A stretch of DNA of 58,344 nucleotides from an uncultured Candidatus Saccharibacteria bacterium. Lineage in GTDB: Bacteria; Patescibacteriota; Saccharimonadia; Saccharimonadales; CAZVRA01. Made by a program: the position numbers and the translations under genes. Location: positions 1 to 58,344 of the forward strand of contig CAZVRA010000004.1 in NCBI GenBank assembly GCA_964630055.1, given 5' to 3'. Positions within the stretch are counted from its first letter, which is position 1; the number at the start of each line of letters is the position of its first letter. A model generated the notes under the pieces. That model saw only the letters and a program-made list of their open reading frames with translations. It was not told the origin of the DNA and searched no databases. Shown here in pieces: positions 13,586 to 30,237 of this stretch.

Positions 13586-13661
13586 GGCTCTTTAGCTCAG
13601 TTGGTAGAGCAGAGGCCTGAAGAGCCTTGTGTCCCCAGTTCGAGTCTGGGAGGAGCCACCA
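13586..13661 (+). tRNA. tRNA-Phe(GAA)
   Basis: ggctctt-ta-gctc-agttggta-gagc-a-gaggc-ctGAAga-gcctt-gtgtc-cccag-ttcgagt-ctggg-aggagcc-acca. 76 nt, canonical. Confidence 0.92.
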
Positions 13662-15330
13662 AACCAAGTGATTGCGGGTCAGCAAGTTCAAACAACTTAC
13701 TGACCCCTGTAATTTTAACTGCATCTTCAGTTCCAGTTTTTAATTCAGCGTAGGTCGGGATTTTGTCAAAAAAGACTCCGAAGAACTGCGCTTTTTTAAT
13801 AGGATCGATCTGTTTGAGCAGGAGTTCGTCCAAGTGTTCCAGAAAATACTTAACCCTCCGTACGATCTTATCCATCTGAACTGGTTCTTCGTTGGTTTTC
13901 TTATCTTTTTCTGTGCGTAGCTCCCGTATCTTTTGCTCTATGTTCACAAGATCTGCCTCCATATATTTAATTGCTGTTTCAGATTCGACCACCTTGAGCT
14001 TTCTGACAGCCATATCTGCCTCAAGCTCTAGTTCTTTAATCCGGGCATCATAACGCGCCAAATCGGCTGCTTGGTGCTCCTGTCGCTTATCCCACTCGGC
14101 CATAACCGTAGCGGCTATCAGGTCTATGTGTTCCTGTGGCAACGTGATATTCTTTACGAACTCTACAACCGTTGCCTCTAACTCAGCTTTTGGTATACGA
14201 AAATAGTGGCCTTTGTCGCAGTGGTAAGCCGGATATAGTTTGCCGCTCTGGCCACGATTAGAACTACCGTACATTGGCCGCCCACACTTTGAACAACCTA
14301 CAAAACGCCTATATGGAAACTCTGGGCTTTTAATCCCCTTGTTGAGTTGGTGCTCCGGCGCTACTTCTTTCTTGATCTCTATATCGTTGCTATCTTCGAT
14401 AATCATAACTTTGCCGCGGTTGGCAGCATTAAATGTATCTATGCTCACTAGGCCGTCAAACACCGTACGTACTGGCTTGCCCTGCGTCCACTTCTCGTTG
14501 TTAACGCCAGCATATATAGGGTTGCGCAGGAGTAAATCCATAGCGTCCTTATCGAGTGGGTTACCACCGCGCCTGCCGACTATTTTCGTTCTGTCTTGTT
14601 TGTCGCGTATGTTGTGTACTCTGGTTTGAAAGCCCATGCGGTTCAGCTCAGCGATGATGTCTTTATCGTGCATTGTACCTGCTGCTCGCATTTCAAACAT
14701 TCGTATGAGCAAAGGCGCTTCTTTGGGATGCGGTTTTAAGATAGCTCGCTTACCATTACGTGTTTCTGACTTTTCGCTCACAAAGCCGTATGGTGCCTGT
14801 CGCATCCAGTAGCCGAGCCTGGTATAGCGTACTGCTGCACCAACAGTGCGAGTTAGTATGTCACGTAGCTCATCTTTGGCTCGCTCAGCTTCCAGGTATT
14901 CAATCTTCTCACTTGGTGAATATTTGCTCCATGTGTACTCCACACCCAGATGCTCAAGTGTATTAACCCTACTTTGGCTAATAACACCGTATTTATCAAT
15001 AAGCTGTACATCGATAGCATCAAGCTGTCGTTTGAGTGGCGCATAGAAATCAGCGCCACCACGCGTAAACCGGTCAATCGACTTAATCAGGAACAGCTGA
15101 ATGTTGTTGCGTCTGTCGGCGCAGTAATCAATAGCCTCCTGCATGGGCTGGTGTAACTTAGCTCCAGACTCGGCAAATATAAAGACCTTCTTTACTCGAG
15201 CATCCAGGCTGTCGGCTAGCTGCTGAAGCTGCTCGCGTTGCGCTTCTGGCGAGTCGCCCTCTTGGAACTGCTTGTCGGACGACACGCGTATAGCAATAAC
15301 TGCATTGCGCTGTGCTACTCCTGGCTGCAT
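13597..15330 (-). CDS. Large serine recombinase (integrase)
   Basis: N-terminal resolvase domain AVIAIRVSSDKQ (catalytic Ser). Recombinase domain, zinc ribbon CSKCGRPMYGSS...YHCDKGH and a long coiled-coil. ATG 15330 is preferred because of the GAGGAAGAG RBS; an alternative ATG is at 15345. The last 21 or so codons are antisense to tRNA-Phe. Confidence 0.9.
   Translation of the reverse strand: MQPGVAQRNAVIAIRVSSDKQFQEGDSPEAQREQLQQLADSLDARVKKVFIFAESGAKLHQPMQEAIDYCADRRNNIQLFLIKSIDRFTRGGADFYAPLKRQLDAIDVQLIDKYGVISQSRVNTLEHLGVEYTWSKYSPSEKIEYLEAERAKDELRDILTRTVGAAVRYTRLGYWMRQAPYGFVSEKSETRNGKRAILKPHPKEAPLLIRMFEMRAAGTMHDKDIIAELNRMGFQTRVHNIRDKQDRTKIVGRRGGNPLDKDAMDLLLRNPIYAGVNNEKWTQGKPVRTVFDGLVSIDTFNAANRGKVMIIEDSNDIEIKKEVAPEHQLNKGIKSPEFPYRRFVGCSKCGRPMYGSSNRGQSGKLYPAYHCDKGHYFRIPKAELEATVVEFVKNITLPQEHIDLIAATVMAEWDKRQEHQAADLARYDARIKELELEADMAVRKLKVVESETAIKYMEADLVNIEQKIRELRTEKDKKTNEEPVQMDKIVRRVKYFLEHLDELLLKQIDPIKKAQFFGVFFDKIPTYAELKTGTEDAVKITGVSKLFELADPQSLGLVAPPRLELGTQGSSGLCSTN
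13676..13706 (+). terminator. 13-bp-stem hairpin immediately 3' of tRNA-Phe (tRNA terminator and/or recombination-site dyad)
   Basis: gggtcagcaagtt-caaac-aacttactgaccc with one mismatch, followed by ctgtaatttta. Lies inside the 3' end of the recombinase ORF on the opposite strand. Confidence 0.4.
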
Positions 15331-15455
15331 GACTCTTCCTCGCATATAAGTTCGATGAGCAGGTCGGCTATAACTTGCAAGCGTTGTTCGGGCGTTAAAG
15401 TGTAAGCTTCTGGGAGCCGTATTTCTTTATTAGTTGTACCCTTATTTCTAGCCAT
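15315..15455 (-). CDS. Small ORF (46 aa) overlapping the recombinase start; candidate directionality/accessory factor
   Basis: MARNKGTTNKEIRLPEAYTLTPEQRLQVIADLLIELICEEESCSQE. Its stop overlaps the recombinase ATG. Below the ORF-track cutoff and with no homology evidence. Confidence 0.3.
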   Translation of the reverse strand: MARNKGTTNKEIRLPEAYTLTPEQRLQVIADLLIELICEEESCSQE

Positions 15456-15647
15456 TTTTGCCCTCGATAGCTATGCTTTACATGAATAGTATAGCACCCA
15501 AATATGAATAGTTGCAATACCTTTTATGTATAAAATTGCACTTTTAAATCCCCACTAAGCATATAGCGCTTTCTTGATTGTACTACCTCTGTTCTCGCTT
15601 TACTTTTTCTTTCTCCTCTTTTATATATACATATAGGAGAAAAAACT

Positions 15648-16436
15648 ATGCGACGGACGGAGACAAAAACAAGATATACCATTAGTCGTTCACAAACTGC
15701 AATACTCCATGCCTTACTAAAATACCGCTTCCTAACAACTGACCTACTTGCAGACCTACTTAAGAAAGATCGCTCAACAATATACGAAAGATTAGCAGTA
15801 CTAGTAGATCAAGGATACATAGCACAGAAATATACCAGTACGTACCGCATAGACAGACGACCAGCTACCTACTATCTTGCACCGGCTGGAATACGGCACC
15901 TAAAGAAACAAGGCGTAGAACGCACTCAACTACACTACAAGAACAAAGACTTCACAGAAGCTCAAATAGATGAGTACTACCGTTATCCCAAGTTCAGTCG
16001 AGTAATTCACCGTAACTATCCTGAAACGTTCCGTACCTACACCAAGTACCAACTTGACCCCGAAAACTACCTCAACCCCATGCCCTGGCTGCTGTTCGTC
16101 CCAGACGACAAAGATGCCCCTGAACTCTTCATGGAATACATCTCAGCTGGTGAACAAAGCTGGATTATCCGTAAACGTATTAACCAACATATTGAGTATG
16201 CCGAGGAAGAGGCTGAATACCGCTACCCGTACTTATTACTGGTTGCGGGCAACGACAACACTGAAAAACGCATCGTGAAGATGTCGACTGACCTACTCTG
16301 GGACTCTGAGCTCTTTACCACCACCGAAGAACGGCTACTGAGTGACAACAAGAACATCTGGCTGCGCCCCATGGAAGTGGATTGGGATGAGGAGCTGATC
16401 TACCACGGGTTGCCGGTGGAGCTTGTTGAGGAGTAG
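15648..16436 (+). CDS. Winged-helix protein, replication-relaxation (Replic_Relax)-like
   Basis: 262 aa. N-terminal pattern ILHALLKYRFLTTDLLADLL...STIYERLAVLVDQGYI...YYLAPAGIRHL resembles plasmid replication-relaxation wHTH proteins. AGGAG RBS. Confidence 0.45.
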   Translation: MRRTETKTRYTISRSQTAILHALLKYRFLTTDLLADLLKKDRSTIYERLAVLVDQGYIAQKYTSTYRIDRRPATYYLAPAGIRHLKKQGVERTQLHYKNKDFTEAQIDEYYRYPKFSRVIHRNYPETFRTYTKYQLDPENYLNPMPWLLFVPDDKDAPELFMEYISAGEQSWIIRKRINQHIEYAEEEAEYRYPYLLLVAGNDNTEKRIVKMSTDLLWDSELFTTTEERLLSDNKNIWLRPMEVDWDEELIYHGLPVELVEE

Positions 16437-16470
16437 CTTTTCTCTCTAGAGGTACGGTATACTTGGGGCT

Positions 16471-16962
16471 ATGGATCTCTCGGGATTAATAAAGAAACTG
16501 GATTTCCAAGCTCAGGAAGAGCTTGAGTATGAAGATCTTCGAGCAAAGACACTCACGCGATCTGACGTGAAAGCGGACATGGAAGCCGTAAATTCTAGCC
16601 TAGAGATTATACGTAAAACTCGTGGTGGTTCGTGGCCATCTGAGCCCGTGACAGAAGAGTTTAACTTCCTCGATATGGCCTGGCATGAACGAGAGTTTCG
16701 AGACGGTGATTCATTCACATATGCAGTCTACGGTACCTCTGGCACATATATTGGTTGCTTCTACCTGTACCCTATGGGCTTGCGAACTCCACTAACAGAA
16801 GAGCTGTTGAGCTACGATGTTGATGCTAGCTGGTGGGTTACCACAGATGCATACAAGCAGGGTTACTATCAAAAACTGTACAAAGCTTTACAGCAATGGC
16901 TCAGTGAGCTTTCGCTCGAGAATGTTTATTATTCAAACAAGGAGATACCGAATGAAGATTAG
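16471..16962 (+). CDS. GNAT-family acetyltransferase-like protein
   Basis: 163 aa. Pattern WPSEP.T.E.N..DM.WHEREF.....FTYAV......YIGCFYLYP resembles a known GNAT (Acetyltransf_3-like) subfamily. Confidence 0.5.
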   Translation: MDLSGLIKKLDFQAQEELEYEDLRAKTLTRSDVKADMEAVNSSLEIIRKTRGGSWPSEPVTEEFNFLDMAWHEREFRDGDSFTYAVYGTSGTYIGCFYLYPMGLRTPLTEELLSYDVDASWWVTTDAYKQGYYQKLYKALQQWLSELSLENVYYSNKEIPNED

Positions 16963-17980
16963 TATAGAAGACTTAAGAAAAAAACTTGTTACTGCCGCAT
17001 CACAGGTAGTTTCGACAGAAGAAGCTGAATATTTCGCTGACGAGTCTATTGAAACGCATATTCGCAAGTCGCCGCGCTCCACTCCACTAAAGTCTGCAGT
17101 TGGTGACCTGAAGGCTAGTATTGAAAACAAAGACCATGCCATTACGTATAAGGTCGACCTACCATCGTACCTGTCTATAGACTTTCAGAGTCAAGGCCCA
17201 CTCGTATATATCAAAAGGATTCACGATGAGCTTGAAGAACGCTCCGCGAAGAATGGTATTGCTATGGGTTCGTTTGTTAACTCGCAGAGCATGCACACAC
17301 TTCATGCGTGGGTGCAGGGCCTTGCGAAACGTGGCCTTGTCGCGATTGCTGTATGCAATGGTGGCCCGAGCGCAGTCGTGCCGCATAACGGCACACGTGG
17401 CGTGTTTGGAACAAACCCTATGGCCTACGGCATTCCAGGAAAAGATGGAGAAATTCATTGTGTCGATATGGCAACCTCACAAATTCCATTCTTTGAGTTC
17501 ATGGATAGCCTGAAGAACGATACACCCTTGCAAGCAAACGCCGCAGTCGATCAAAATGGTGAGTTTACGACAGTAGCCAAAGAAGCAGTTGACCCTGATA
17601 GTGATCCGAAAGACCCGGTCAGTAACATAGTACCTATGGGCGGTAGTTACAAAGGATATTATCTTGTGTACTTGTTTGAACTGCTAACCAGTGGCTTAAT
17701 CGGTCAGCCCTCCAGCCCAGAAATGAGCGATAGCTTTGTTCCGGAAGAACATGGAGCAACTCTGATTGTATTCAACCCTAAAGCGATGGTCACAGCCGAT
17801 AATCTTGCAAAGTCTGTAAACTCACTCAACTCTACGCTGAAATCACAGAAGCCTAAGAAAGATACTGAAATACGGCTTCCTGGTGAAGAAAACAATAAAC
17901 GGTTTGCAGAAAATGTTCAAGAAATCGAACTTGACGATACTACTCTTGATACGCTCAACAAATTGCTGGACGAATCATGA
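16952..17980 (+). CDS. Ldh_2 family (malate/L-lactate/sulfolactate dehydrogenase type 2) oxidoreductase
   Basis: The ORF track starts at 16817, inside the upstream gene. Trimmed to ATG 16952, preceded by AAGGAG. Motif HNGTRGVFGTNPMAYGIP is typical of Ldh_2. Confidence 0.75.
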   Translation: MKISIEDLRKKLVTAASQVVSTEEAEYFADESIETHIRKSPRSTPLKSAVGDLKASIENKDHAITYKVDLPSYLSIDFQSQGPLVYIKRIHDELEERSAKNGIAMGSFVNSQSMHTLHAWVQGLAKRGLVAIAVCNGGPSAVVPHNGTRGVFGTNPMAYGIPGKDGEIHCVDMATSQIPFFEFMDSLKNDTPLQANAAVDQNGEFTTVAKEAVDPDSDPKDPVSNIVPMGGSYKGYYLVYLFELLTSGLIGQPSSPEMSDSFVPEEHGATLIVFNPKAMVTADNLAKSVNSLNSTLKSQKPKKDTEIRLPGEENNKRFAENVQEIELDDTTLDTLNKLLDES

Positions 17981-18858
17981 ATAAATCACCCTTGACTACT
18001 TCTGAGCTCAGTGAACTATTCCATCACTATTCACCCGACGATTTAGCTGCCAGTGAAAAGAATGGCGATGCCTTTGCCAACGATGCCTATAATCTGAAGA
18101 CTGCCGACGGTGCTGAATATGTCATGCGAATTCTAAAACTACAGATTCCTGAGACCGTAGAGCGTGAAGCGGAAATGCAGCATCAGCTCGCCGAAGCAGG
18201 TATTGGAACACCGCACTACCTTGCTTTCGAGAGCGGTAAGCACGTTGGCGAGCATGAGGGGCTTGCTTTTACGCTGAGCGAGCGTATTGCAGGTGAAGTT
18301 CCAAAAACTGCATCACTCGAACTAATTAGTAGCTTCGGTTCGACGTTGGCACAGTTTCATGATGTCCTAAAAGATACCGAGGTGCCCTTTAGCAAAATGC
18401 AGTGGTTCCAGCCCAAAAATGTTCATGAAGATCTTGAAAAGTATGACGGTGAATTAAAATCAGACACAACAAAGCTCATCACGGATGGTGAGAAACTATT
18501 TCAAACGGGTTTGCCACAAACACTGATTCATGGCGACTTGTGGCTTGGCAATGTGTTTGCTGACGGTGATAAAGTTACAGCTGTCTTTGACATGGAAACT
18601 GCCGAGCATAACTACCGTATTATAGACCTAGCCCGTACTTATCTTTCTATGCGCCTGGAAACCAAATACAGTAAAGACGAAATCATTGATAAGTTGTTTG
18701 TTGGCTACGATGCGGTCGCAAACGAGCTACTTACTCAAGAAGAAAAGGATAGTTTTGGTTTGGCGACCAGCTATACTGCTGGCGTTTGTGCGCTCTGGCA
18801 TGAGCTAAATGGCACAAGATATGCTGGTAATTACTTGAAATTTGGAGATGAGAAATAA
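17977..18858 (+). CDS. Aminoglycoside/choline-kinase-type phosphotransferase (APH family)
   Basis: 293 aa. Catalytic loop LIHGDLWLGNVF (HGDxxxxN) and metal-binding VFDMETA. Confidence 0.8.
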   Translation: MNKSPLTTSELSELFHHYSPDDLAASEKNGDAFANDAYNLKTADGAEYVMRILKLQIPETVEREAEMQHQLAEAGIGTPHYLAFESGKHVGEHEGLAFTLSERIAGEVPKTASLELISSFGSTLAQFHDVLKDTEVPFSKMQWFQPKNVHEDLEKYDGELKSDTTKLITDGEKLFQTGLPQTLIHGDLWLGNVFADGDKVTAVFDMETAEHNYRIIDLARTYLSMRLETKYSKDEIIDKLFVGYDAVANELLTQEEKDSFGLATSYTAGVCALWHELNGTRYAGNYLKFGDEK

Positions 18859-18860
18859 TC

Positions 18861-19520
18861 ATGAAACTATTGAACTATTCTTCCGCCGAGCTCACAGATA
18901 AGCTTAATACATATCTTGCCTCAGACCAGCGATATCAGGCCGTGTACAGCTATACGAAAAAACGTTTTGAGGCTGCAACCGAACTTGTAGCCCACAACTG
19001 GCCGCATTGCTACCGAGACACGCTAAACGCTATCGTAATCGGCGAAGCCGAAGGTGCGGACATGAGTATAGTTTTGCCAGCTATCACCATGCATGATATC
19101 GGATTTTTGTACGGTGCAAGCCCAGAGCAGCATGGTGCAGTTGGAGCAGATCGTGTCAAAGAATTCCTGAAAGAAGCAGGAGCTCATTATAGCGACGAGC
19201 AAATCGAAGCAATAGCAAATTGTATCCGAACTCACAAAGGCAGTATTCACGGTAAGCACCCCGAGGGACTGGAAGCAAAGGTCGTTACTGACGCTGATTT
19301 GCTAGAAAAGTTTGGTTTATTTGGCGTCTATCAAACAGTGCGCACCTACGCCGAGTTTAACTGGTCAATTGATAAAGCCATCGAGCGTGGCGATCGGATC
19401 CTCACGGTCGAGCTAGAAACTGAAACCGGGGAAAAATTGGCTGAGCCAGGCAGACAATTTGTCGCTGATTTCTACAGTCAATTAAAGATAGCAAATGAGC
19501 CGTACGAGGAAGGGCGATGA
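18861..19520 (+). CDS. HD-domain phosphohydrolase
   Basis: 219 aa. H...HD pattern (HNWPHCYRD...AITMHDIGF) and a downstream D (VVTDADLLEKFG). Confidence 0.7.
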   Translation: MKLLNYSSAELTDKLNTYLASDQRYQAVYSYTKKRFEAATELVAHNWPHCYRDTLNAIVIGEAEGADMSIVLPAITMHDIGFLYGASPEQHGAVGADRVKEFLKEAGAHYSDEQIEAIANCIRTHKGSIHGKHPEGLEAKVVTDADLLEKFGLFGVYQTVRTYAEFNWSIDKAIERGDRILTVELETETGEKLAEPGRQFVADFYSQLKIANEPYEEGR

Positions 19521-20182
19521 AATTAGTCCTCGCCTCCCAAGGCTTCACCACGCCTGAGATTGCCCAAGCAACCGCAGATCTCGTCGGTAAACCTCTCACC
19601 AAGCTCAACGTAGCTGTCATTAACGAAGCGTATGTAGCTATTGCTCCTGGCAGAGATGAAAGCTGGCTGATTAACGAGTTATCTCTTTTGAAACAGTATG
19701 TTAAGAGCGTGTTTTTTGTTAATCTTCGAGCCTACGAACTTCCTGAGGTTAAAGATCGTCTGAGCACAGCAGATATTATATACATCGTTGGCGGTGCGCA
19801 GTTAGTATTACCCAGATTATTCAGGCAAACTGGCCTTGACAAACTCCTCACTGAATATGCACAGGACAAAGTTATTCTTGGTACCTCTGCTGGTGCTAAT
19901 GTGCTCGGCAGTCACATACCAAGCGCAGCGTATTGGGAAGATCAGTATGGAGACGCCGCTACTTACTTAGCCGAACCATCTCTCGGCTTAGTTGATTTCA
20001 ATATCTTGCCTCATTACGGCAGAGAAGATCACCCACATCGAACCGATGCAATCTTAACGCCCCTGCTCAAAGATAATCCATTCCCATTGTTTGGCGTGGC
20101 TGACACACAAGCTGTTATATATAACAACGGTGCAATAACGTTTGTGGGTGGAGAACCGGTAAAGTTTGGAGAAGAAAAGTAG
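19517..20182 (+). CDS. Peptidase S51 (dipeptidase E-like)
   Basis: 221 aa. IIYIVGGAQ...LGTSAGANVLG nucleophile-elbow region and a downstream His (LPHY). Confidence 0.75.
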   Translation: MKLVLASQGFTTPEIAQATADLVGKPLTKLNVAVINEAYVAIAPGRDESWLINELSLLKQYVKSVFFVNLRAYELPEVKDRLSTADIIYIVGGAQLVLPRLFRQTGLDKLLTEYAQDKVILGTSAGANVLGSHIPSAAYWEDQYGDAATYLAEPSLGLVDFNILPHYGREDHPHRTDAILTPLLKDNPFPLFGVADTQAVIYNNGAITFVGGEPVKFGEEK

Positions 20183-20183
20183 T

Positions 20184-20516
20184 ATGCAGTTTGTCATCAT
20201 TGGCCTAGACGGAACAGACAAGGACGCGCCTACTCGTAGACAGCTGGTTCGCCAAGACCACATCAAGATGGGCGACAAGTTATTGGCGTCAGGCAATTTG
20301 TGGTACGGCGCAGCTTTGCTCCATGACAACGGATCTATGAAGGGTTCAATGTATGTCGTGAACTTTGAGTCAGAAGAGAAGCTCCAAGAGTACCTAAAGA
20401 AAGAGCCGTACATTGTTGGCGACGTATGGCTTGACGTTACGATTCATAAGTCTAATACCCGTGATCCATGGCAGTTCAATAGAGATGAATCTTGGTTTAA
20501 GGAGAGCACAAAATGA
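20184..20516 (+). CDS. YciI-like protein
   Basis: MQFVIIGLDG...RQDHIKMGDKLLASGNLWYGAALL...GSMYVVNFESEEKLQEYLKKEPY fits the YciI ferredoxin-like family. ATG 20184 was chosen because it sits just past the upstream stop. Confidence 0.6.
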   Translation: MQFVIIGLDGTDKDAPTRRQLVRQDHIKMGDKLLASGNLWYGAALLHDNGSMKGSMYVVNFESEEKLQEYLKKEPYIVGDVWLDVTIHKSNTRDPWQFNRDESWFKESTK

Positions 20517-23051: not shown

Positions 23052-23055
23052 GTCT

Positions 23056-23394
23056 ATGAATATTATTCTTATTATTATCGGTAGTCAGCTACTATTCACC
23101 ATCGGTGATTTACTGGCGCGGCATAACTTGCAAGCCCAGGGCTTCAAATTCACTACCTTCATTGCCTGGTGGTTCTTGGTCTACGTGGTGCTGCGAAGTG
23201 CTGCAACACTGGGACAGCTGTTTGTTTTTACTAACATGGAGGTCGGTAAGACTATGGCGCTATTTGGGGCATCAAGCTTAGTCCTCGTGAACGTGCTCGG
23301 ATTCCTTATTTTGGGTGAAAAACTTTCACTCCCAATATACTTCGGTATAATGTTAGCTGTAGGAGCAATCTTAATTGTAGGGTTCAGTAAATAA
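23056..23394 (+). CDS. Small 4-TM DMT/SMR-like membrane transporter subunit
   Basis: 112 aa with four predicted helices. The size and topology match EamA-half/SMR-like proteins. Confidence 0.5.
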   Translation: MNIILIIIGSQLLFTIGDLLARHNLQAQGFKFTTFIAWWFLVYVVLRSAATLGQLFVFTNMEVGKTMALFGASSLVLVNVLGFLILGEKLSLPIYFGIMLAVGAILIVGFSK

Positions 23395-23900
23395 TGAAAA
23401 CCGTTCACGACAGCGCCACCCCCACTCCTGGCCAGCAGGTTATCACAGCCTGTGCATTCATTCATCAGGAATTCGATGGCGTACAGAAACTCTTTATGGC
23501 CAAGCGTGCCGACACCAAGAAATTCTTGCCCGGCATATACGAGATCCCCGGCGGGCATATCGACTTTGGCGAAAACATCGAAGATGGTCTGGTTCGCGAG
23601 ATTCAAGAGGAGTTCAGCGTAGCAGTACGCCTAGGCGACCCATTTGCAGTTTTTACCTACCTGAATGAAGTTAAGGGCTCCCACTCTATTGAGGTGATTT
23701 ACTTCGCACAACTAGCTGACCCGAGCGTGAACATACAACCGAACCCCGAAGACCATAGTACTTGCGGCTGGTTTACCGAGGTGGAATTACCACAAACCTT
23801 TGTGAGCGAAAAAGATACAGAGGATGATGAGGTTAAAGCCTTGTATCGAGGGTTTGCGTTGCTCAAGGGTGAAAAGCTTGATTTTAGCAATAGAGCCTAG
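23394..23900 (+). CDS. NUDIX hydrolase
   Basis: 168 aa. Nudix box GGHIDFGENIEDGLVREIQEEFSV (GX5EX7REUXEEXGU). Confidence 0.85.
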   Translation: MKTVHDSATPTPGQQVITACAFIHQEFDGVQKLFMAKRADTKKFLPGIYEIPGGHIDFGENIEDGLVREIQEEFSVAVRLGDPFAVFTYLNEVKGSHSIEVIYFAQLADPSVNIQPNPEDHSTCGWFTEVELPQTFVSEKDTEDDEVKALYRGFALLKGEKLDFSNRA

Positions 23901-23942
23901 GCGTTAGGGCTTGAATAGCCGACAAGTATAGCGTTATTGAGG

Positions 23943-24542
23943 CTATTTTGCTGCTAGTGCAACTGACTTTTTGCCAAGTATTGACGCAACCCAAGACACT
24001 TTCTCTGGGCTTACTGGATCAGGTATTAGCACCTCTGGCATCTTGTAAAACGGAGGATAGGCATTGCCAGATGACCTATCTAGCAAAACACCATCTGACT
24101 GGTTATATAGTTTTCGATAATCACTGAGTGTAATTGCACTCTCCCAGTATCGCTCAACAGCTCTCTCGGGAATGCCGTTACGATGTGAATAACGAAGCCC
24201 TAAAGCCACATCTTTGAGCCTTTCTGCATCCAGTACCATAGCCGTATCGGGGTCAACCTCTACAGACAACGTGATGAGTTGGTCTAGCTCTTTTCCTCTC
24301 AGGGATCCTCTATGAAGCCTTTCTAGCGACGGGTGGGCATAGATTCCATCTGTTCTGGATATACCACGGGTAACTAGTTCTTTGGGTCTAAATTCATCGA
24401 CAACTTCGTCAACATAACCACGCATGGTCTCAAGCTCTCCCATACCTGATACCAAGCCATGTGCTTCAATGGAACTTAGGTGTGCTAAATCAGTGATGTG
24501 GTATACGGTATCTATGTTTGATGTATTTATTTTATCGGACAT
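23943..24542 (-). CDS. Hypothetical protein; candidate ADP-ribosyltransferase fold (Tpt1/Arr/DarT-like YHxT...GL motif)
   Basis: 199 aa. VYHITDLAHLSSIEAHGLVSG, then GIYAHPSLE, LITLSVEV and PEVLIPDP. The order and spacing recall the NAD-binding lobe of H-Y-[ED] ARTs. Assignment by eye only. Confidence 0.35.
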   Translation of the reverse strand: MSDKINTSNIDTVYHITDLAHLSSIEAHGLVSGMGELETMRGYVDEVVDEFRPKELVTRGISRTDGIYAHPSLERLHRGSLRGKELDQLITLSVEVDPDTAMVLDAERLKDVALGLRYSHRNGIPERAVERYWESAITLSDYRKLYNQSDGVLLDRSSGNAYPPFYKMPEVLIPDPVSPEKVSWVASILGKKSVALAAK

Positions 24543-24575
24543 TTACATACATATTAGCATAATGAGTTTGATTCA

Positions 24576-25454
24576 TTAAATTTCTGAAATCTTGAATTGT
24601 TCTGCTTTAGCAATGCCAGACGCTAATACCTCTTCGATTTCACTCTCCGTAAGACCAAGCTTTGCTCCTGATTCGTGGATCCATTCACGATATTTTTTAC
24701 TGCCAACTGTATCTCTATCGACTTCTACATTAATAGCTCCGCGATACAGGCCGGTAAAACTATCAATCTCCGCGGTAATTCTATCTTGCTCGGCTCGATC
24801 AAGTTGGAGTGCACCTTGAGCTATACGCTGCAGGCTTTCTCTCAGTGGAGCACCTCCAAGCAAGAATGCCGTAATATGATCATCGCCAATATCGTGATCA
24901 AAGTAATCGTATGATACTGGGTACTTGCCCTCAGCAATTGCGGCTAAGTATTCTGGTGAACGAATGTCTTTTTCGTCAAAGAAGACAACTTCAATTCCAT
25001 GCTCGGCGGCAGCTTTACGGAACGTTTCTGGCGTCGGAATACCAGATATGTATGAACCAGACTCGTCACTTGCAAATTCGTAACCAAGGGACTGCAACAA
25101 ACCTTGGCTTTCGTTGCCAGCCAGCAGCGTCCAGCCTGCTGAATCGTCATCAAAGGTTGGTGTAAAACATTCACTGTCAACCACCAAACCTTTCGGCCCC
25201 GAGCGCATAATGATCGAGCGAGCAGGTACATATGGTTCTACTTGGTCGTCTCCGGCAAAATATATTGTATAGGCTCCGGGCTCGAGCTTATCGAGGTCTT
25301 TGGGGTTAAGAGGATTGGTTGTAGCATCAGTGGTATCTGCCGTAAATGGCTCGACACCATCTGGTAGGTCAGTAAGAAAGTGTTGGTCGCCAATTATTAA
25401 TGGTCGCCTATCTAGGGATGTATCTCCTTCTGGTGTTAAATTTTCTACTGGCAC
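24576..25454 (-). CDS. Hypothetical acidic protein
   Basis: 292-aa ORF lying between the NTase gene (15-nt gap) and the ART-like gene (33-nt gap). No family recognised. Confidence 0.55.
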   Translation of the reverse strand: MPVENLTPEGDTSLDRRPLIIGDQHFLTDLPDGVEPFTADTTDATTNPLNPKDLDKLEPGAYTIYFAGDDQVEPYVPARSIIMRSGPKGLVVDSECFTPTFDDDSAGWTLLAGNESQGLLQSLGYEFASDESGSYISGIPTPETFRKAAAEHGIEVVFFDEKDIRSPEYLAAIAEGKYPVSYDYFDHDIGDDHITAFLLGGAPLRESLQRIAQGALQLDRAEQDRITAEIDSFTGLYRGAINVEVDRDTVGSKKYREWIHESGAKLGLTESEIEEVLASGIAKAEQFKISEI

Positions 25455-25469
25455 AATGTTTCCTCTTTT

Positions 25470-26255
25470 TTATTTTTCATCACCTACTAGCCCTAACCGC
25501 TCGATTACTTTTTGTTTATCAAACACGTCAACGTCTATGCCAATGTCTCCCCAAATGCTTCGCGCAACTTCTTCGCCACCAACGTATTTGAAAACTTTCC
25601 GAATATTCTTTTCATACCGCTCATCTTCAACTCCTGGAAGCTTTTTAATGAGCAGGTCAATTTCTTCTTTAGGCGGAGGAGTATAGCCGTTATGCACAAA
25701 TCTTATGACTGAGAACAGATTTGCAGCCTGGTGTCGATAGCCAGTAGGGTTTAGTACCAGTTTCTTATCTTGGATTGCTTCAAGTGCGCCTGGTAGAGAA
25801 ATCAGCTTCTCCTGCCATTGTTCGGAGAAAATATCTCTTAGTGAGATTGCATTGCCGTTAACGGTTAACCCTACATGCTGTTTTAGGTTGTTAGCGACTG
25901 AGGTGTTATCTACTAAGTGGATATCAAATACCAGATTGTTCTTAAAGTCTTCAGGGTCTTGATTGCCGACAAACGATTTAATCATGACTTTTTGTGTAGG
26001 TCGCTGAATACGCCCCTCGTAAAAGCCGAGTTGACTTAAATACGCGAGGTACTTATCACTTCCTTTGACTACAATCTGATCGTAATCTCGTTGTTCTAAG
26101 TCATCCCCACCATGAAAGAATCTTTGGATTGCATTACGTACAGTACCGGCGACTAAATACACCTCTATGCCGTCAGGGAGGTTTTTAACCAGGTTCTTGA
26201 AAACTTCACGCCCACGATTGTCTTTAAAATCCATGGGGAGTAAGGTGTTTTTCAT
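25470..26255 (-). CDS. Minimal nucleotidyltransferase of the CCA-adding/poly(A) polymerase (PolyA_pol head) type
   Basis: 261 aa. VAGTVRNAI...RDYDQIV resembles GGxVRD...DxD, and TVNGNAISL resembles the TiNAla motif. Much shorter than canonical CCA enzymes. Confidence 0.55.
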   Translation of the reverse strand: MKNTLLPMDFKDNRGREVFKNLVKNLPDGIEVYLVAGTVRNAIQRFFHGGDDLEQRDYDQIVVKGSDKYLAYLSQLGFYEGRIQRPTQKVMIKSFVGNQDPEDFKNNLVFDIHLVDNTSVANNLKQHVGLTVNGNAISLRDIFSEQWQEKLISLPGALEAIQDKKLVLNPTGYRHQAANLFSVIRFVHNGYTPPPKEEIDLLIKKLPGVEDERYEKNIRKVFKYVGGEEVARSIWGDIGIDVDVFDKQKVIERLGLVGDEK

Positions 26256-26390
26256 AAAATTAGTATATCAAAAAAAGAAAGGCTTCTGTTCTCTCGCAAG
26301 TAGCATGGACACAAACCTCTCTTAATCTCATCATCTGGGTAACGATGCAAGCTACAGTAGTGGCTGGTATTCTTATCTATCGATAAGGGG

Positions 26391-26396
26391 TATACT
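26391..26396 (+). promoter_or_regulatory. -10 box TATACT 8 nt upstream of ATG 26405 (leaderless-type start) in the divergent control region
   Basis: ggggTATACTggtagtcaATG. No Shine-Dalgarno sequence. Confidence 0.35.
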
Positions 26397-26404
26397 GGTA
26401 GTCA

Positions 26405-28222
26405 ATGGAAGAAAGTATCGACACTCTGCAGCCGAATCCTACGAGTCTGCATGATATTCCTGAACTAAAAGAAATCCACGTTCGAGAGGGTGTGACATTG
26501 CGCCCACTAGAGGTAGAAGATGCAACCCGCATGCTGGAAATCTTAGACACCGATCCATCCATACGTGATAGGGTATCAGTTGCTTCAAGAATGCATTCGC
26601 CGGAGAGTGTTGCAGAACAAGTAGAAACGTATCAAAACGATGCGCACACCATTCGTTACGCCCTGCTCGAGGGTGATCGACCTGTTGGTCTTGTATCGTT
26701 CTGGCGGGATATCGATAATCCGTTCAACGCCCCTGATAATCCGAACGACTATGGTTTTGGTTATTTCCTTGATCCAAATGAACGAGGCAAGGGTCTTGTT
26801 CCTGATGCCGTGCAGCAAGTCATGAATACCGCTCAAGATGTCTTACACGTAGAAAACTTCATAGCCTATTGTGAAGATAATAACCCAGAAAGTATTACAG
26901 CTCTAACCAAACTTGGCTTTGAGTCCACCGATCTAACCTATGAGGAACAGAATAACGGCTGGGTTGAACGCAAATACGTAAAGAGTACTCAGCCGAACGA
27001 GCCGCTATCAGTTATTGAACTGCCGTCTGAGGATGAAGTCACGAGTCGACAGCAAGCCCTACCGCAAGTGGATCATTACGAGGTGCGGCATGGCTCTGGC
27101 TTTAGAGAGGCGCGTTTTGAAGCGATCAAGAGACTTGAGCGCATAAATAAACAGGATTACTCAGTCGAAGAGCTCCAAGAACTTGAGGCACAAGCCCATG
27201 ATTATACGCCAACTATAGGCATAGAAATCGAGATTTACGACAAGGCCTTGCTGAGTGAGGCAGAGCGAACACTAAGCCCAGACGAACAGGCAGACGTTAT
27301 TGCTAAGCGAAAACGAACCTTAGGCAGGATCGAGCGCACCGGCATACCTAGGGATGATAGCGACCCTGGCTGGTGGGAATTTGCACTGCAGCCTACACGT
27401 ACCCCAGAGTTGTTGACAGCTGAAGTACAGGCACTCGAAGACGCTGATGTACTGCATGGCGGCGAACGATACTATCCCTTACACGTAACGCTTGGCGGTA
27501 TAACTAGCGAGAAGCAAAGCGCTTTATCCGAAGTTATGGAGCATGACTTACAAGGTGAGCAGGTTTTTGTACTTGTCCACGCTCTTGAGGCATCTGGCAT
27601 TGCAACAACTCCAAAGCGGCTCATGATGCCCGCAACATCATCAGTAAAAGGTGACTATTGGACAAGTGGAAACGCCGGTATCATCGAGAGAGAACCCGAG
27701 CAGATGAGGGGGGTTAACTTTACAAACGGAGTGGAAATACGATCATTTTGTTTTAGTACGGTTGAAGAACTAGGAACAATCATGCAATCCACACAGGCAC
27801 TTGGAGCAGCCTTAAGCGCATACCAGGACTTATCGCGATTGACTGAACATAAAAGCGCTATGCCGCTAAGCCATAAAACTATAGAAACAAGGCCTGCCCC
27901 GCGTATTAGAAGCGGCGCTGACCTAGAAGACGTTATACGGTTAAGTGCTGTTTGGTCAGATTTTAGCCACAAGGTACACGAGCTATTTGGTGAAGCTGGT
28001 TTAGTTGATCCAAGCACCGTTTGGCACGAGCCACGTTCAAAGGGGTTGTTGCGTAGTGCGTCAACGGGAGATTACGGTGCAATGGCAAACTTCATGAAAA
28101 AAGCAACGAAGCCAGGCAGCCCAGAACATGCCGTGCAGCAGCAACTCGTACGGCTGATTGAATCTGCGGCTACAGCGGTGAATAATATAACGCGCCAAGA
28201 GTCGACAGCTCCGAAGGTTTAA
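26405..28222 (+). CDS. Fusion protein: N-terminal RimJ/RimL-type GNAT acetyltransferase + C-terminal glutamine-synthetase-like carboxylate-amine ligase (amidoligase) candidate
   Basis: 605 aa. GNAT region is LRPLEVEDATRM...GFGYFLDPNERGKGL. The C-terminal part has motifs in the order TIGIEIEIY, WWEFALQPTRTPE, YPLHVTLGG, GVEIRSF, as in GCS2/amidoligase/PafA-type ligases. Confidence 0.5.
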   Translation: MEESIDTLQPNPTSLHDIPELKEIHVREGVTLRPLEVEDATRMLEILDTDPSIRDRVSVASRMHSPESVAEQVETYQNDAHTIRYALLEGDRPVGLVSFWRDIDNPFNAPDNPNDYGFGYFLDPNERGKGLVPDAVQQVMNTAQDVLHVENFIAYCEDNNPESITALTKLGFESTDLTYEEQNNGWVERKYVKSTQPNEPLSVIELPSEDEVTSRQQALPQVDHYEVRHGSGFREARFEAIKRLERINKQDYSVEELQELEAQAHDYTPTIGIEIEIYDKALLSEAERTLSPDEQADVIAKRKRTLGRIERTGIPRDDSDPGWWEFALQPTRTPELLTAEVQALEDADVLHGGERYYPLHVTLGGITSEKQSALSEVMEHDLQGEQVFVLVHALEASGIATTPKRLMMPATSSVKGDYWTSGNAGIIEREPEQMRGVNFTNGVEIRSFCFSTVEELGTIMQSTQALGAALSAYQDLSRLTEHKSAMPLSHKTIETRPAPRIRSGADLEDVIRLSAVWSDFSHKVHELFGEAGLVDPSTVWHEPRSKGLLRSASTGDYGAMANFMKKATKPGSPEHAVQQQLVRLIESAATAVNNITRQESTAPKV

Positions 28223-28225
28223 AGC

Positions 28226-28783
28226 ATGAAAATCTACGTCATTCGTCACGGTCAAACAAAACTAAACGTTGAACATATCATCAACGGTAATATAGATGAC
28301 GAGCTAACTCCCAAGGGTATAAAACAAGCAGCACTAGCTGCTACCACACTGCCGGATTCTATAAAACGTATGTACGTCTCTTCCCTCTGGCGTGCCAAGC
28401 AAACCGCTGACATATTAAATGCTGGCCGAGAGCTGCCCATTACCTATAGTGATGATCTGCGTGAGGTAAACTTCGGCGATCTGAATGGTAAGCCCTTTCT
28501 CGAAGAATACCAAGCACGACACATGGCGCTTAATTACGACTGGCGACCTTCTGGCGAGAACTTTACAGACGTCAAAACTAGAGTCCTACGGGCGCTACAA
28601 AAGATCAAAGAGGAGAACAATGACGGTGAAGCACTAATTGTTGGGCATGGTGGTACTATCCGAACACTGTACTATTTAGAGAATGGTCAGCCGATGGGCA
28701 CGATTGAGAATGCGTCACTCTTCACTTTTGACCTAGATAAAATCCTTGAACAACGTCTTACTCCTGAGAGTGCTGTAGAATAG
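28226..28783 (+). CDS. Histidine phosphatase (phosphoglycerate mutase superfamily)
   Basis: 185 aa. KIYVIRHGQT (RHG) and VGHGGTIR motifs. Confidence 0.85.
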   Translation: MKIYVIRHGQTKLNVEHIINGNIDDELTPKGIKQAALAATTLPDSIKRMYVSSLWRAKQTADILNAGRELPITYSDDLREVNFGDLNGKPFLEEYQARHMALNYDWRPSGENFTDVKTRVLRALQKIKEENNDGEALIVGHGGTIRTLYYLENGQPMGTIENASLFTFDLDKILEQRLTPESAVE

Positions 28784-28790
28784 AGTAGAT

Positions 28791-29003
28791 ATGCCAGATA
28801 AAACACCCCTACATATTGGCCACAAACTCCAGGCAGCTCGCCAGAATAAAGGCTTCACGCAAGCCGAAGTTGCTAAGCGTGCTGGTACAACTGTCAATCA
28901 CTACGCAAAGATTGAGCGCAGTGAAGTAGTTCCATCGCTCAAAACGCTTGAAAAGATCATCAAAGCGCTCGAGATCAAGTCCGCGGACGTCCTGCCCTTT
29001 TAG
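28791..29003 (+). CDS. XRE-family helix-turn-helix transcriptional regulator
   Basis: 70 aa. LQAARQNKGFTQAEVAKRAGTTVNHYAKIERSEVVPSLKTLEKI is a classic HTH_3 pattern. Confidence 0.85.
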   Translation: MPDKTPLHIGHKLQAARQNKGFTQAEVAKRAGTTVNHYAKIERSEVVPSLKTLEKIIKALEIKSADVLPF

Positions 29004-29218
29004 TTACCAAGAGATTTTTCGTACTCGTCGACAAGCGCTTCAAACTTGTCTGGGTCATCAAATGCGATACTGCGTACATTCTCGTTGATCCGTGATTTGA
29101 GATGGTCTAGAAACGCCAGACAGTAGGCAGGCTCAGCTTTTTCGGGGCTGTCAGGATAGAAGGCCTTCATGTAGCGCCCTACTGCTGCAATATCTTCATC
29201 GGTAAATTGATCACTCAT
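29000..29218 (-). CDS. Small acidic hypothetical protein downstream of and overlapping the PLD nuclease gene
   Basis: 72-aa ORF. Its start overlaps the PLD stop by 8 nt. Rich in Asp/Glu. Confidence 0.5.
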   Translation of the reverse strand: MSDQFTDEDIAAVGRYMKAFYPDSPEKAEPAYCLAFLDHLKSRINENVRSIAFDDPDKFEALVDEYEKSLGN

Positions 29219-29717
29219 GATTCACCTTATTATACCACCTTGCAAGCTTGGTGAAGCGTATCATCTGCTGAACTAATTCTGATGACTTAGTGCGTCGCAT
29301 TACTTCGCAGCTATCTGTTTGCGACAAAATGTTCAAGCTACCTTCGTAAAGCGTACGGTGGTCTATGATGGCCAGCTTACGATGCAGGTTGCTCGTGTAG
29401 ATGACCGTAATGCCCAGGCTTTGCAGCCAAGCAACTCCCCCTTGAGCCTGCACGCGCATTACGTCGCTATGCGTATCGGGATTGCGCGTATTTATAACGA
29501 TGCTCACACCACGACTGCGGGCTTCTCTCAGCCCGTCACAGAGCCATTCCAGGCGTTTAGTAGTAATGAACGGACTCTCGATGATAATACTCTGTCGGGC
29601 TCGCTGGATATCGCGTGCGAAGACATCATAGAATGCCTGTTCGTCCAATAGTTGCGACCGAAGTAAAGATGAGGTATCATACATCTGTTGACTCAGCGGG
29701 AATAGGAATCTACGCAT
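29211..29717 (-). CDS. Single-HKD phospholipase D-family (Nuc-like) nuclease
   Basis: HKD motif NLHRKLAIIDHRTLYEGSLN. N-terminal FYDVFARDIQRARQSIIIESPF. ATG 29717 is preferred (GGAG 7 nt upstream). The ORF track starts at GTG 29765, and ATG 29684 is also possible. Confidence 0.75.
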   Translation of the reverse strand: MRRFLFPLSQQMYDTSSLLRSQLLDEQAFYDVFARDIQRARQSIIIESPFITTKRLEWLCDGLREARSRGVSIVINTRNPDTHSDVMRVQAQGGVAWLQSLGITVIYTSNLHRKLAIIDHRTLYEGSLNILSQTDSCEVMRRTKSSELVQQMIRFTKLARWYNKVNHE

Positions 29718-29820
29718 CGCTAGACTCCATGATTGTATCGATGTCGAGCTTCTCAAGTTTGTCACTTAGTTTTGCAAGCTCAGAGAGTATGTCGTTCCAG
29801 TTTTCCCTGGTAGAGTCCAC
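29710..29820 (-). CDS. Possible small acidic ORF (about 36 aa, GTG/TTG start) whose stop overlaps the PLD start
   Basis: VDSTRENWNDILSELAKLSDKLEKLDIDTIMESSDA*. The stop TAG lies inside ATGCGTAG of the PLD start. No ATG and no clear RBS, so the call is weak. Confidence 0.2.
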   Translation of the reverse strand: MDSTRENWNDILSELAKLSDKLEKLDIDTIMESSDA

Positions 29821-29858
29821 CAAAACGACATTTAAATACGATACTGCTTAGATATAAT

Positions 29859-30110
29859 CTATCGTAGTTCTTGCATCCGACGTTCATTTTCGTCTAAATC
29901 ACGACCGAGCTGATCTAAAAACTGTACATGCTGATCTAGCTCGGATACCTCACGTTCCCATTCAGCTATAGTGCTTTGTAATTGCTCTATGTCACGCTTC
30001 ATACGCTCCAGAGTATCGCGAAAATTTTGAGATTGCCTGCGTCTTTCGTCGGCTAGTCTTTTTGCATTACTAGCACTAGAACGCACATTATCACCTGCAG
30101 CCACTGGCAA
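29859..30110 (-). CDS. Small coiled-coil hypothetical protein
   Basis: 83-aa ORF from TTG. GTG 30104 lies 6 nt after AGGAG and is more likely. Charged heptad-like sequence (ERMKRDIEQLQSTIAEWEREVSELD). Confidence 0.45.
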   Translation of the reverse strand: MPVAAGDNVRSSASNAKRLADERRRQSQNFRDTLERMKRDIEQLQSTIAEWEREVSELDQHVQFLDQLGRDLDENERRMQELR

Positions 30111-30160
30111 CTCCTGACTTATTTTATGGTTATTATATAAGATATTTTAGTCGAATTTTG

Positions 30161-30237
30161 TGGTGGAGCCACGGGGATTCAAACCCCGGACCTCAGCGCT
30201 GCCAGCGCTGCGCTCTAATCAGCTGAGCTATGGCCCC
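30161..30237 (-). tRNA. tRNA-Ala(GGC) with an atypical D-loop/T-loop
   Basis: Reverse complement ggggcca-ta-gctc-agctgatta-gagc-g-cagcg-ctGGCag-cgctg-aggtc-cgggg-tttgaat-ccccg-tggctcc-acca. G3:U70 Ala identity pair is present. The D-loop lacks GG and the T-loop has U at position 56. Confidence 0.9.

Follow-up and report, generated by a model that had tools for sequence, protein, structure and literature searches.

What has entered this genome between two convergent tRNA genes, where does it end, and how did it come to be there? The question is raised by a 58,344-nucleotide stretch of DNA from an uncultured Candidatus Saccharibacteria bacterium (GenBank assembly GCA_964630055.1, contig CAZVRA010000004.1, positions 1 to 58,344 of the forward strand; this whole stretch is called the window below), in which a gene for a large serine recombinase (LSR) and a series of accessory genes lie between tRNA-Phe and tRNA-Ala. 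An earlier note, made from the sequence alone, had described an island of about 16.5 kb that fills the space between the two tRNA genes. We find that the island is real and that its boundary at tRNA-Ala is not: it occupies positions 13662-29822 (16,161 bp), and its right end stops 340 bp short of that tRNA. We put the probability that it is a mobile island integrated by the LSR at roughly 85%, and consider it highly probable that it represents the integrated copy of a 16.2-kb site-specific integrative element whose family is widespread in Saccharibacteria and in other bacteria of the Candidate Phyla Radiation (CPR).

The ends of the island and its circulation

The features that define the two ends are the following (ORF, open reading frame).

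13586-13661, plus strand: tRNA-Phe(GAA), found with ARAGORN; the integration target, whose 3' end is the chromosomal (B) arm of the left junction
13656-13664: left junction (attL core region), CCACCA plus AA; the sole sequence in common with the right end is CCACCAAA
29807-29822, plus strand: right end of the island, CTGGTAGAGTCCACCA, a 12/16 degenerate copy of the tRNA-Phe 3' end CTGGGAGGAGCCACCA; element-borne P arm
29859-30110, minus strand: 83-aa coiled-coil ORF; chromosomal flank, outside the element
30161-30237, minus strand: tRNA-Ala(GGC), found with ARAGORN; chromosomal flank, outside the element

Three metagenome contigs from three samples (X2, X25 and X24) are 100% identical to the end of the island and then run into three different sequences, none of which is the window's own right flank. 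They part ways directly after CCACCA(A0-3), and with the window itself they give four different flanks following positions 29822-29825. In the junctions below, a slash marks the point of departure.

Window: ...CCACCA / AAACGACATTT
X2, last matching base 29825: ...CCACCAAAA / ATTGAACAAATG
X25, last matching base 29824: ...CCACCAAA / TAATATCGAAAG
X24, last matching base 29822: ...CCACCA / TTTAGCAGAATATGG

A blastn comparison with related loci also led to position 29822. The locus L006, from a Saccharibacteria metagenome-assembled genome (MAG) whose LSR is 89% identical to that of the window, is homologous to window positions 28790-29822, where the homology ends. The L006 island closes with an exact 16-nt copy of the tRNA-Phe 3' end, followed in the flank by a terminator-like hairpin, and in the alignment both this island and that of the window terminate in a copy of the tRNA-Phe 3' end; a further locus, L033, carries a 16/17 repeat. 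The region 29859-30237 has no homology with the related islands. Taken together, the junction contigs and the L006 comparison delimit the island to 13662-29822 and assign the coiled-coil ORF and tRNA-Ala to the chromosome; tRNA-Ala is no boundary of the element.

As the degenerate repeat accompanies the island into different flanks, we regard it as a P arm carried by the element and not as a displaced piece of a host tRNA gene. The mismatches between the repeat copies fall only upstream of CCACCA, which places the crossover at or adjoining the CCA end; for the left junction, we infer from the sequence a crossover within or adjoining the CCA end. Strict searches for another occurrence of the tRNA-Phe 3' end had missed the repeat: a 29-mer with up to 3 mismatches and a repeat finder, both run over the whole window, returned nothing, and a stringent local alignment in the window returned chance 9-mers only. 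These searches failed because the repeat is too degenerate; it came to light only when the L006 island and the junction contigs were set beside the window. A 32-mer from the window right end had no match, with up to 7 mismatches, in 83 loci, and on the sequences compared the P arm is not conserved as DNA. Inspection by eye made no dyad symmetry evident between the P and P' arms, and for this reason we claim no half-sites.

Two related loci repeat the tRNA 3' end once more, as an exact 16-nt match situated 120-170 nt outside the P arm (L099, positions 2812 and 2983; L118, positions 3742 and 3864); an older element that once occupied the same tRNA may have left this trace.

The element is found in more than one genomic context, and its ends can be fixed to the nucleotide. 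In four public runs (X1-X4, from freshwater, wastewater and other metagenomes of three studies), sequences 99-100% identical to parts of the island lie between 13.7 and 29.8 kb, and for 13.4 kb of left and 20 kb of right flank the matches came down to pieces of tRNAs and of conserved genes, most of them under 95% identity. Near-identical coverage past position 29825 is zero in all runs holding the island. Among indexed runs, its right part is present in 20, which belong to 18 studies and include one metatranscriptome, and the right flank in 0. The 315-aa protein encoded just right of tRNA-Ala (30353-31300) has no homologue among 5.8 billion proteins, which, together with a right flank found in no indexed run, suggests that the host lineage is essentially unsampled while the island is common. 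The metagenomes that bear the island also contain tRNA-Phe genes identical to that of the window with other sequence downstream.

An island that is common in public runs and flanks that are found in none could also be the product of an assembly chimera, in which the island of one organism was joined to the chromosome of another, and the left junction does lie inside a tRNA gene common to many organisms. We give this explanation almost no credence. The right junction has only CCACCA in common with anything else, far too little to mislead an assembler, and the layout running from the tRNA and LSR to the P arm recurs in more than 100 independent assemblies.

The contigs of X24, a wastewater metatranscriptome, are identical to positions 29300-29822, in the region of the phospholipase D (PLD)-family gene listed below, up to the island end and on into the foreign flank. 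Transcripts would seem to cross the right junction, unless DNA was carried over.

The recombinase, its family and the backbone genes

The genes of the element number 24, of which 6 form a backbone at its two ends and 18 are cargo; the earlier note had spoken of about 25 accessory genes. The features of the interior are as follows (wHTH, winged helix-turn-helix).

13597-15345, minus strand: LSR ORF of 582 codons; gene callers place the start at 15330, giving 577 aa (probable start)
13676-13707, plus strand: hairpin and U-rich stretch, 15 nt 3' of tRNA-Phe and within the LSR 3' coding region
15315-15455, minus strand: 46-aa ORF overlapping the LSR start; conserved, backbone
15648-16436, plus strand: Replic_Relax-like wHTH gene, divergent from the LSR gene; backbone; Pfam PF13814, 29.7 bits, residues 20-98
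16471-28783: cargo, 18 genes, bounded at both ends by backbone genes
28791-29003, plus strand: HTH_3 (Cro/C1-type) regulator; far-end backbone; Pfam E 4e-14
29000-29218, minus strand: 72-aa gene downstream of the PLD gene; far-end backbone; homologues in L006 and L036
29211-29717, minus strand: PLD-family nuclease-type gene, 168 aa from the ATG at 29717, the gene nearest the right end; PLDc_2 E 2e-11

The ORF at 13597-15345 is an intact large serine recombinase, as shown by sequence profile and fold. Its product matches Pfam PF00239 (Resolvase) with 32.3 bits against a cutoff of 23.3, and the family phrog_95, 'integrase', over residues 12-537 (E 9e-38). Residues R20, S22, D91, R92, R95, C351, C354 and C376 are unchanged in all 17 homologues aligned, and S22 lines up with the catalytic serine motif of TP901-1. 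An AlphaFold2 model (mean pLDDT 71) contains the amino-terminal domain, helix alphaE, the beta-rich recombinase and zinc ribbon domains, a coiled coil of two long helices at residues 404-484, and an additional C-terminal helical domain at residues 491-551. The catalytic domain, recombinase domain, zinc ribbon and embedded coiled coil that characterize large serine recombinases are all present. By sequence, the protein resembles solved LSRs only very slightly (best phmmer E 0.0095). The best Foldseek matches of the model are full-length serine-integrase cryo-EM structures (9dxh, 9y66 and 9iu2; E 1e-17 to 1e-12), with alignments spanning 514-570 columns.

These results agree with the earlier description of a full-length LSR, with catalytic motif, zinc ribbon and coiled coil, lying directly against tRNA-Phe, and the contact is even closer. 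The two genes are arranged tail-to-tail, and the 3'-most 65 nt of the LSR ORF, which comprise about 22 codons together with the stop, lie on the strand opposite tRNA-Phe; the resulting C-terminal tail is predicted to be disordered in the AlphaFold2 model. The hairpin at 13676-13707 has a 13-bp stem (RNA folding dG -19.4 kcal/mol, z -3.7), and 0 of 200 shuffled sequences were equally stable. It may be a piece of the P' arm or a tRNA-Phe terminator supplied by the element, in which case transcription of the tRNA may end inside the element.

The position of the LSR gene at a tRNA is a property of the whole family. The protein collection contains more than 1,500 homologues of the window LSR. Identity to it ranges from 51 to 89% among the best 120, which are mostly 570-580 aa long and almost all from Saccharibacteria, and the C-termini of the aligned homologues are all tRNA-antisense peptides. 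Relatives number 368 in GTDB species genomes (one genome per species) and 387 in JGI metagenome contigs, most of them in MAGs of Saccharibacteria and other CPR bacteria, and nearly every locus with enough downstream room has a convergent tRNA next to the LSR gene. For the comparison of targets we used 119 distinct loci with sequence beyond the LSR gene; a convergent tRNA is present in 119 of 119 because the set was chosen on that basis. The LSR ORF runs into the tRNA in 116 of them, with the stop codon inside the tRNA in 92 and read-through of the tRNA in 24, and the register of the LSR frame relative to the tRNA 3' end is identical in 100 of these 116. The targets comprise 19 isoacceptors (Glu 58, Gln 25, Phe 14, and others). 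In several cases a genome of about 1 Mb holds two or three LSR copies, tandem arrays are present (L130 with L128; L164), and the chromosomal sides of the islands differ even where the LSRs are 89% identical.

Three loci (L132, L147 and L163) have an LSR gene without an intact tRNA downstream: L132 (5300-5400) retains only the first ~14 nt of the tRNA-Glu 3' end, and L147, a whole contig of 11.2 kb, encodes an LSR of 608 aa with a different long tail. They may be decayed, tandem or excised forms. Six LSR loci (L013, L041, L047, L060, L061 and L066) occur in MAGs labelled Gammaproteobacteria, Pseudomonadales, Dormiibacterota or Eisenbacteria, mostly on short-to-medium contigs of 7-86 kb; here, misbinned CPR contigs seem a likelier cause than a wider host range.

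Backbone genes at both ends recur across the family. Homologues of the wHTH gene are found in 99 of 163 loci. The 46-aa ORF has tblastn matches in 35 loci and is called as a gene of 45-49 aa overlapping the LSR start in L001, L003 and L165; it matches no family, and we consider it a candidate regulator or recombination directionality factor. At the other end, homologues of the HTH_3 gene lie near the far end or the junction in 20 loci, and small genes occupy the position of the 72-aa gene in L130, L164 and L165. The PLD gene, whose product matches the PLD nuclease domains of MkoC, MkoB and DrmC, is present wherever the far end is visible (L006, L033, L036, L103, L130 and L165), with a Mrr_cat nuclease in its place in L164. 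Islands with both ends visible measure 6.6-11.1 kb (L103, L099, L033, L006 and L058).

The presence of an integrase next to regulatory genes brings to mind a prophage remnant, or a phage satellite resembling phage-inducible chromosomal islands, that uses a serine integrase. The match to phrog_95 would fit such an origin, and the Cro/C1-type helix-turn-helix (HTH) gene with a small ORF beside the integrase recalls a lysogeny module. Neither the window island nor the related islands inspected has a capsid, terminase, portal, tail, primase or packaging gene, and LSR relatives number 0 among the 2.9 million viral contigs of IMG/VR; a phage derivation is hardly credible. Among the genes of the window island, no match to capsid, terminase, portal, tail, primase, packaging, relaxase or type IV secretion system families was obtained with Pfam, PHROG or NCBIfam, and the tyrosine phage_integrase domain (Pfam) is absent from every island ORF, which leaves the serine recombinase as the only recombinase. 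The earlier opinion that the island is neither a prophage nor an integrative and conjugative element (ICE) thus holds: it has no capsid, portal, terminase or tail gene, and none of the relaxase, secretion system and coupling protein that mark an ICE or an integrative mobilizable element.

The wHTH gene calls for a separate comment. Its match to PF13814 is in line with the replication-relaxation-like gene announced by the earlier note, and it could make the island an integrative mobilizable element similar to the actinomycete ICEs (AICEs), with the Replic_Relax protein as relaxase or replication initiator and a translocase acting in cis, as in some relatives, or in trans. Indeed, DUF87/TraG/TrwB-like ATPases adjoin the module in L003 and L164. 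On the other hand, the PF13814 match is confined to the N-terminal wHTH part (profile positions 1-76 of 191), the protein matches TrmB and HTH families of Pfam as well, regulator families fit equally well, and its NCBIfam matches are transcription regulators, every one below the cutoff. The window island has no translocase, type IV secretion system or type IV coupling protein, the ATPase is absent from most relatives, and, to our knowledge, conjugation has not been documented in Saccharibacteria. Despite the size of 9-16 kb and the tRNA targeting, which recall AICEs (PMC2440964), we regard this reading as improbable.

Several results weigh against the integration of a mobile island by the LSR. 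Two Pfam matches of the recombinase stay just under their cutoffs, PF07508 (Recombinase) with 20.7 bits against 21.1 and PF13408 (Zn_ribbon_recom) with 22.7 bits against 25.3. Each right-end junction is represented by one contig only, with a depth of 2-3.6. Taken alone, the right-end repeat of the window is weak: its score is 11, the background is 6.1 +/- 1.5, and a few sites in the window attain 12-13 by chance. A relaxed repeat search in 160 loci proved non-specific on its own, with 10 forward matches and 9 in the reverse-orientation control, and only about six related islands show both their ends. From the relaxed search we kept the hits with 0-1 mismatch, or those accompanied by an open frame with a nuclease gene next to it. 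The L093 match was set aside as probably spurious, being a 300-codon read into a P-loop ATPase. The windowed composition check proposed earlier gave a divided answer, as the GC content of the island (0.454 vs 0.458) does not deviate and the tetranucleotide distance is raised across its whole length (0.25-0.28 vs a window mean of 0.21). The proposed checks for an empty site and for excision junctions gave negative results in public data, which consist of short, low-depth contigs that break at tRNA genes. An empty attB for this host was not found in public metagenome contigs: the tRNA-Phe contigs of island-bearing runs do not run into the island's right flanks, and an exact-protein look-up for the PIG-L neighbour found nothing. 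As for the excised circle (attP), no joint contigs were present in the island-bearing runs and no contig had terminal overlaps.

The unremarkable GC content and the lack of an excision junction in public contigs would also suit an LSR locus that has become fixed and domesticated at the tRNA and is inherited vertically, its neighbours turning over by homologous recombination or transformation; the high conservation of the protein (50-89% identity) and its near-constant length across many CPR genomes point the same way. The distribution of the island makes this very unlikely. An identical island is joined to at least 4 different flanks at the same nucleotide and is found without this chromosome, two or three copies occupy different tRNAs within single genomes of about 1 Mb, tandem arrays exist, and, as said, even islands with 89% identical LSRs differ in their chromosomal sides. 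A mobile, cargo-rich integrative element, as the earlier note had it, is in better agreement with the same island in different flanks and with related LSR modules that carry other cargo at tRNA genes.

The 3' end of the recombinase gene and attP

If the two ends of the island are joined, what becomes of an LSR gene whose last codons lie in the target tRNA? The far end contains a frame that bears on this point.

29713-29823, minus strand: 37-codon open frame LVDSTRENWNDILSELAKLSDKLEKLDIDTIMESSDA, which would extend the LSR frame in the excised (attP) form

We constructed excised forms in silico by joining each LSR at its tRNA end to its own far end. The joined LSR frame remains open for 35-46 further codons in the window, L006, L033, L058, L099 and L103. 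Three natural junctions have the same arrangement: in L130, an LSR of 606 aa runs straight into the PLD gene, a small gene and the HTH gene, and a second LSR gene with tRNA-Glu lies 28 kb further on the same contig, forming a tandem array; in L165, an LSR of 602 aa is followed by PLDc_2, a 74-aa gene and the HTH gene; and in L164, an LSR of 588 aa is followed by a Mrr-type nuclease. All nine junctions stay open, for 27-46 codons, and the nine tails align to the pattern LV.S..E.WN.L...L..L...LE.LG. In the window, the stop codon of the tail (29710-29712) overlaps the ATG of the PLD gene (ATGCGTAG). An overlap of stop codon and nuclease ATG also occurs in L006, L033, L103 and L130, with the forms ATGCGTAG, ATGCTTAA and ATGTTTAG among the window, L006, L033 and L103; L099 has a similar overlap of stop codon and ATG (ATGACTGA).

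The tail DNA of the window and that of L099 are 62% identical in nucleotides, and the frame that continues the LSR is the only one free of stop codons in both. It also has the highest amino acid identity (18/37), a BLOSUM score of 90 vs at most 59 for the other frames, and the most synonymous changes (9). The differences fall at codon positions 1/2/3 in the numbers 13/7/22, that is, 22 of 42 at the third position, in the LSR-continuing frame only. In the integrated state the DNA upstream of the tail frame is unrelated host flank, and the simplest explanation is that the frame is translated as the LSR C-terminus once the P' and P arms are joined. As far as these alignments can tell, attP probably lies inside the 3' end of the LSR gene, so that this gene would span its own attachment site.

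A different explanation would be that the 37-codon frame belongs to the PLD operon, as a leader or small ORF of its own translated from an in-frame GTG within TGGTG, and that the overlap between the LSR gene and the tRNA is incidental. There is an in-frame GTG at the extreme end of every P arm, since tRNA 3' ends read TGGTG on that strand, and the comparison of the window with L006 by itself separates the frames poorly. The sequence upstream of the GTG, however, is unrelated host flank in every integrated case, so that no conserved ribosome-binding site is possible. In addition, the frame is continuous with a full LSR in the three natural junctions, and the register between LSR frame and tRNA end is kept in 100 of 116 loci. 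We judge a separate small ORF to be unlikely.

The following cycle can be proposed. At or adjoining the CCA end, the LSR would recombine attP with a tRNA gene's 3' end, in this case that of tRNA-Phe, and a circular form would integrate while leaving the tRNA intact. [quoted passage not shown] The backbone occupies both ends, with the LSR gene, 46-aa ORF and wHTH gene at one and the HTH_3 gene, small gene and PLD gene at the other, and exchangeable cargo between them. The four unrelated flanks, together with a tandem insertion beside a resident element, suggest that the requirement for the B' arm is loose. The 46-aa ORF, wHTH and HTH_3 proteins might regulate recombination, or replication of the excised form. 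Candidate routes from cell to cell would be uptake of the excised circle by natural competence, vesicles, or the help of other elements.

The conserved helical tail of ~37 aa would be part of the LSR when the element is excised or adjoins another in tandem, with a stop codon overlapping the PLD start, and the excised element could thereby couple translation of the integrase to that of the nuclease operon. Integration would exchange this tail for ~22 tRNA-antisense residues and detach the PLD operon from the LSR gene, so that LSR activity and nuclease expression could both depend on the integration state. Such a sensor could control directionality or functions needed after excision, and integration would silence the nuclease operon. 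That the tail swap has a regulatory role is, in our view, conceivable and still rather doubtful.

Cargo and relation to known systems

Fourteen of the cargo genes match known families: GNAT, Ldh_2 dehydrogenase, APH-family kinase, HD hydrolase, S51 peptidase, YCII, two PNPOx-like proteins, a glyoxalase-fold protein, EEP, a small EamA-like membrane protein, NUDIX, a GNAT fusion of 605 aa, and a His phosphatase. The other four, of 181, 199, 292 and 261 aa, have no family match. No cargo match reaches a curated NCBIfam cutoff, and for that reason no specific function or resistance gene can be named. A reading of the APH, GNAT and glyoxalase genes as antibiotic resistance was dropped, the APH(3') match having 22.6 bits against a cutoff of 205.

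Related islands carry partly different cargo. L001 has ABC-F, MFS and zeta-like genes and has NUDIX, EEP, PNPOx and two unknown genes in common with the window island; L003 has Hachiman, a DUF87/TraG-like ATPase and restriction-modification genes; and L164 has Thoeris, type I restriction-modification and AAA ATPases. The latter (contig of Logan run SRR27460158, 1-20638) is a composite defence island built from these elements, with two LSRs in opposite orientation. It also holds ThsA/ThsB, SMC-like ATPases, a D12 methylase and a DUF87/TraG-like ATPase, and the Mrr-type nuclease replaces PLD at its junction.

Two details of the window cargo concern single genes. The 605-aa protein (26405-28222) has its N-terminal GNAT domain at residues 30-174, and its other ~430 residues match no family; the three neighbours of this gene on the minus strand (199, 292 and 261 aa) are also without a match, and those of 199 and 292 aa recur in the L001 island. 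The longest ORF for Ldh_2 (16817-17980) overlaps the preceding GNAT gene by 146 nt, and as its Pfam match begins only at residue 66, the true start is probably an internal Met at ~16949.

Compared with the large serine integrases of phiC31, Bxb1, TP901-1 and A118 and with the Ccr recombinases of SCCmec, the window LSR has the same domain architecture, its gene likewise lies at one end of the element, the identity between attP and attB is similarly short, and a small adjacent ORF could be a directionality factor. It differs from them in that its family targets tRNA 3' ends throughout (19 isoacceptors), its ORF overlaps the target and appears to span attP, and it has the extra C-terminal helical domain at residues 491-551. 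Unlike the elements of phages and ICEs that use serine integrases, the window element is neither phage nor conjugative. We know of no serine integrase whose gene spans attP. The element is of a known kind, an LSR integrative island, and what appears to be new is its targeting of tRNA genes and an attP apparently inside the LSR ORF. In the literature that we searched, LSR islands are not described from Saccharibacteria or from any other CPR bacteria.

In SSV1-type archaeal integrases, attP lies within the integrase gene and integration splits it. In the integration-dependent immunity systems of the mycobacteriophages BPs and Brujita, attP lies within the repressor gene, and in BPs integration removes a C-terminal degradation tag. 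These systems, which use tyrosine integrases, resemble the one described here in having attP in a protein-coding gene and a protein altered by integration. They differ from it in the extent and outcome of the change: a serine integrase would here merely trade its last ~37 codons for tRNA-antisense ones, and the nuclease gene downstream would be uncoupled.

The tRNA islands of the Islander type offer another comparison. Like them, the window island has an intact tRNA gene (tRNA-Phe) at the integrase-proximal end, a repeat resembling the 3' part of that gene at the distal end and the integrase gene inside, and its family has variable cargo and tandem accretion at one tRNA. Islander-type islands use tyrosine integrases, whereas the window island has a serine recombinase; the repeats of its family are short (6-17 nt), confined to the extreme 3' end, and a mimic carried by the element rather than a displaced gene fragment. 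Serine integrases were not known to target tRNA genes at the time of that work (Islander, PMC4383910, 2014).

The tycheposons of Prochlorococcus are similar in being cargo-bearing, tRNA-specific integrative elements of streamlined genomes with no recognised conjugation or prophage route, with integrase clades divided by tRNA, niche and defence cargo, and tandem arrays in which older copies are displaced as new ones arrive. Of 501 tycheposons, 474 use tyrosine recombinases, and primase/helicase replication modules are carried (Hackl et al., bioRxiv 10.1101/2020.12.28.424599). By contrast, the window island combines an LSR, a wHTH gene and an end module of nuclease and HTH genes in a host of another phylum (CPR), has no primase or helicase, and does not belong among the tycheposons.

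Saccharibacteria and other CPR bacteria have tiny genomes with few recognised routes of gene exchange, and widespread LSR islands would explain the gain and loss of their accessory and defence genes. The family departs from the working rule that tRNA genes serve tyrosine integrases only, and it may include the first LSR gene that spans its own attP. Its integrase/att pairs have natural landing sites (tRNA-Phe, -Glu, -Gln and others) in organisms whose genetic manipulation is very difficult. The widest interpretation, that of a serine-integrase clade dominant in CPR bacteria, specialised on tRNA 3' ends and with a gene straddling its own attP, whose exchange of tail and nuclease senses the integration state, is put forward tentatively, as something possible that we would not yet expect to hold in full. 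If it were true, the family would be the main vehicle of defence and accessory genes in reduced CPR genomes and a ready-made integration tool for them, and the tail swap a built-in integration-state sensor.

The window contains a second mobile element, apart from the island. An insertion sequence of the IS21 family lies at 6300-8900, between tRNA-Gly and tRNA-Leu, in a stretch of low GC content (0.35-0.39), with ORFs at 6666-7955 and 7948-8829 for an IstA-like rve transposase and an IstB ATPase.

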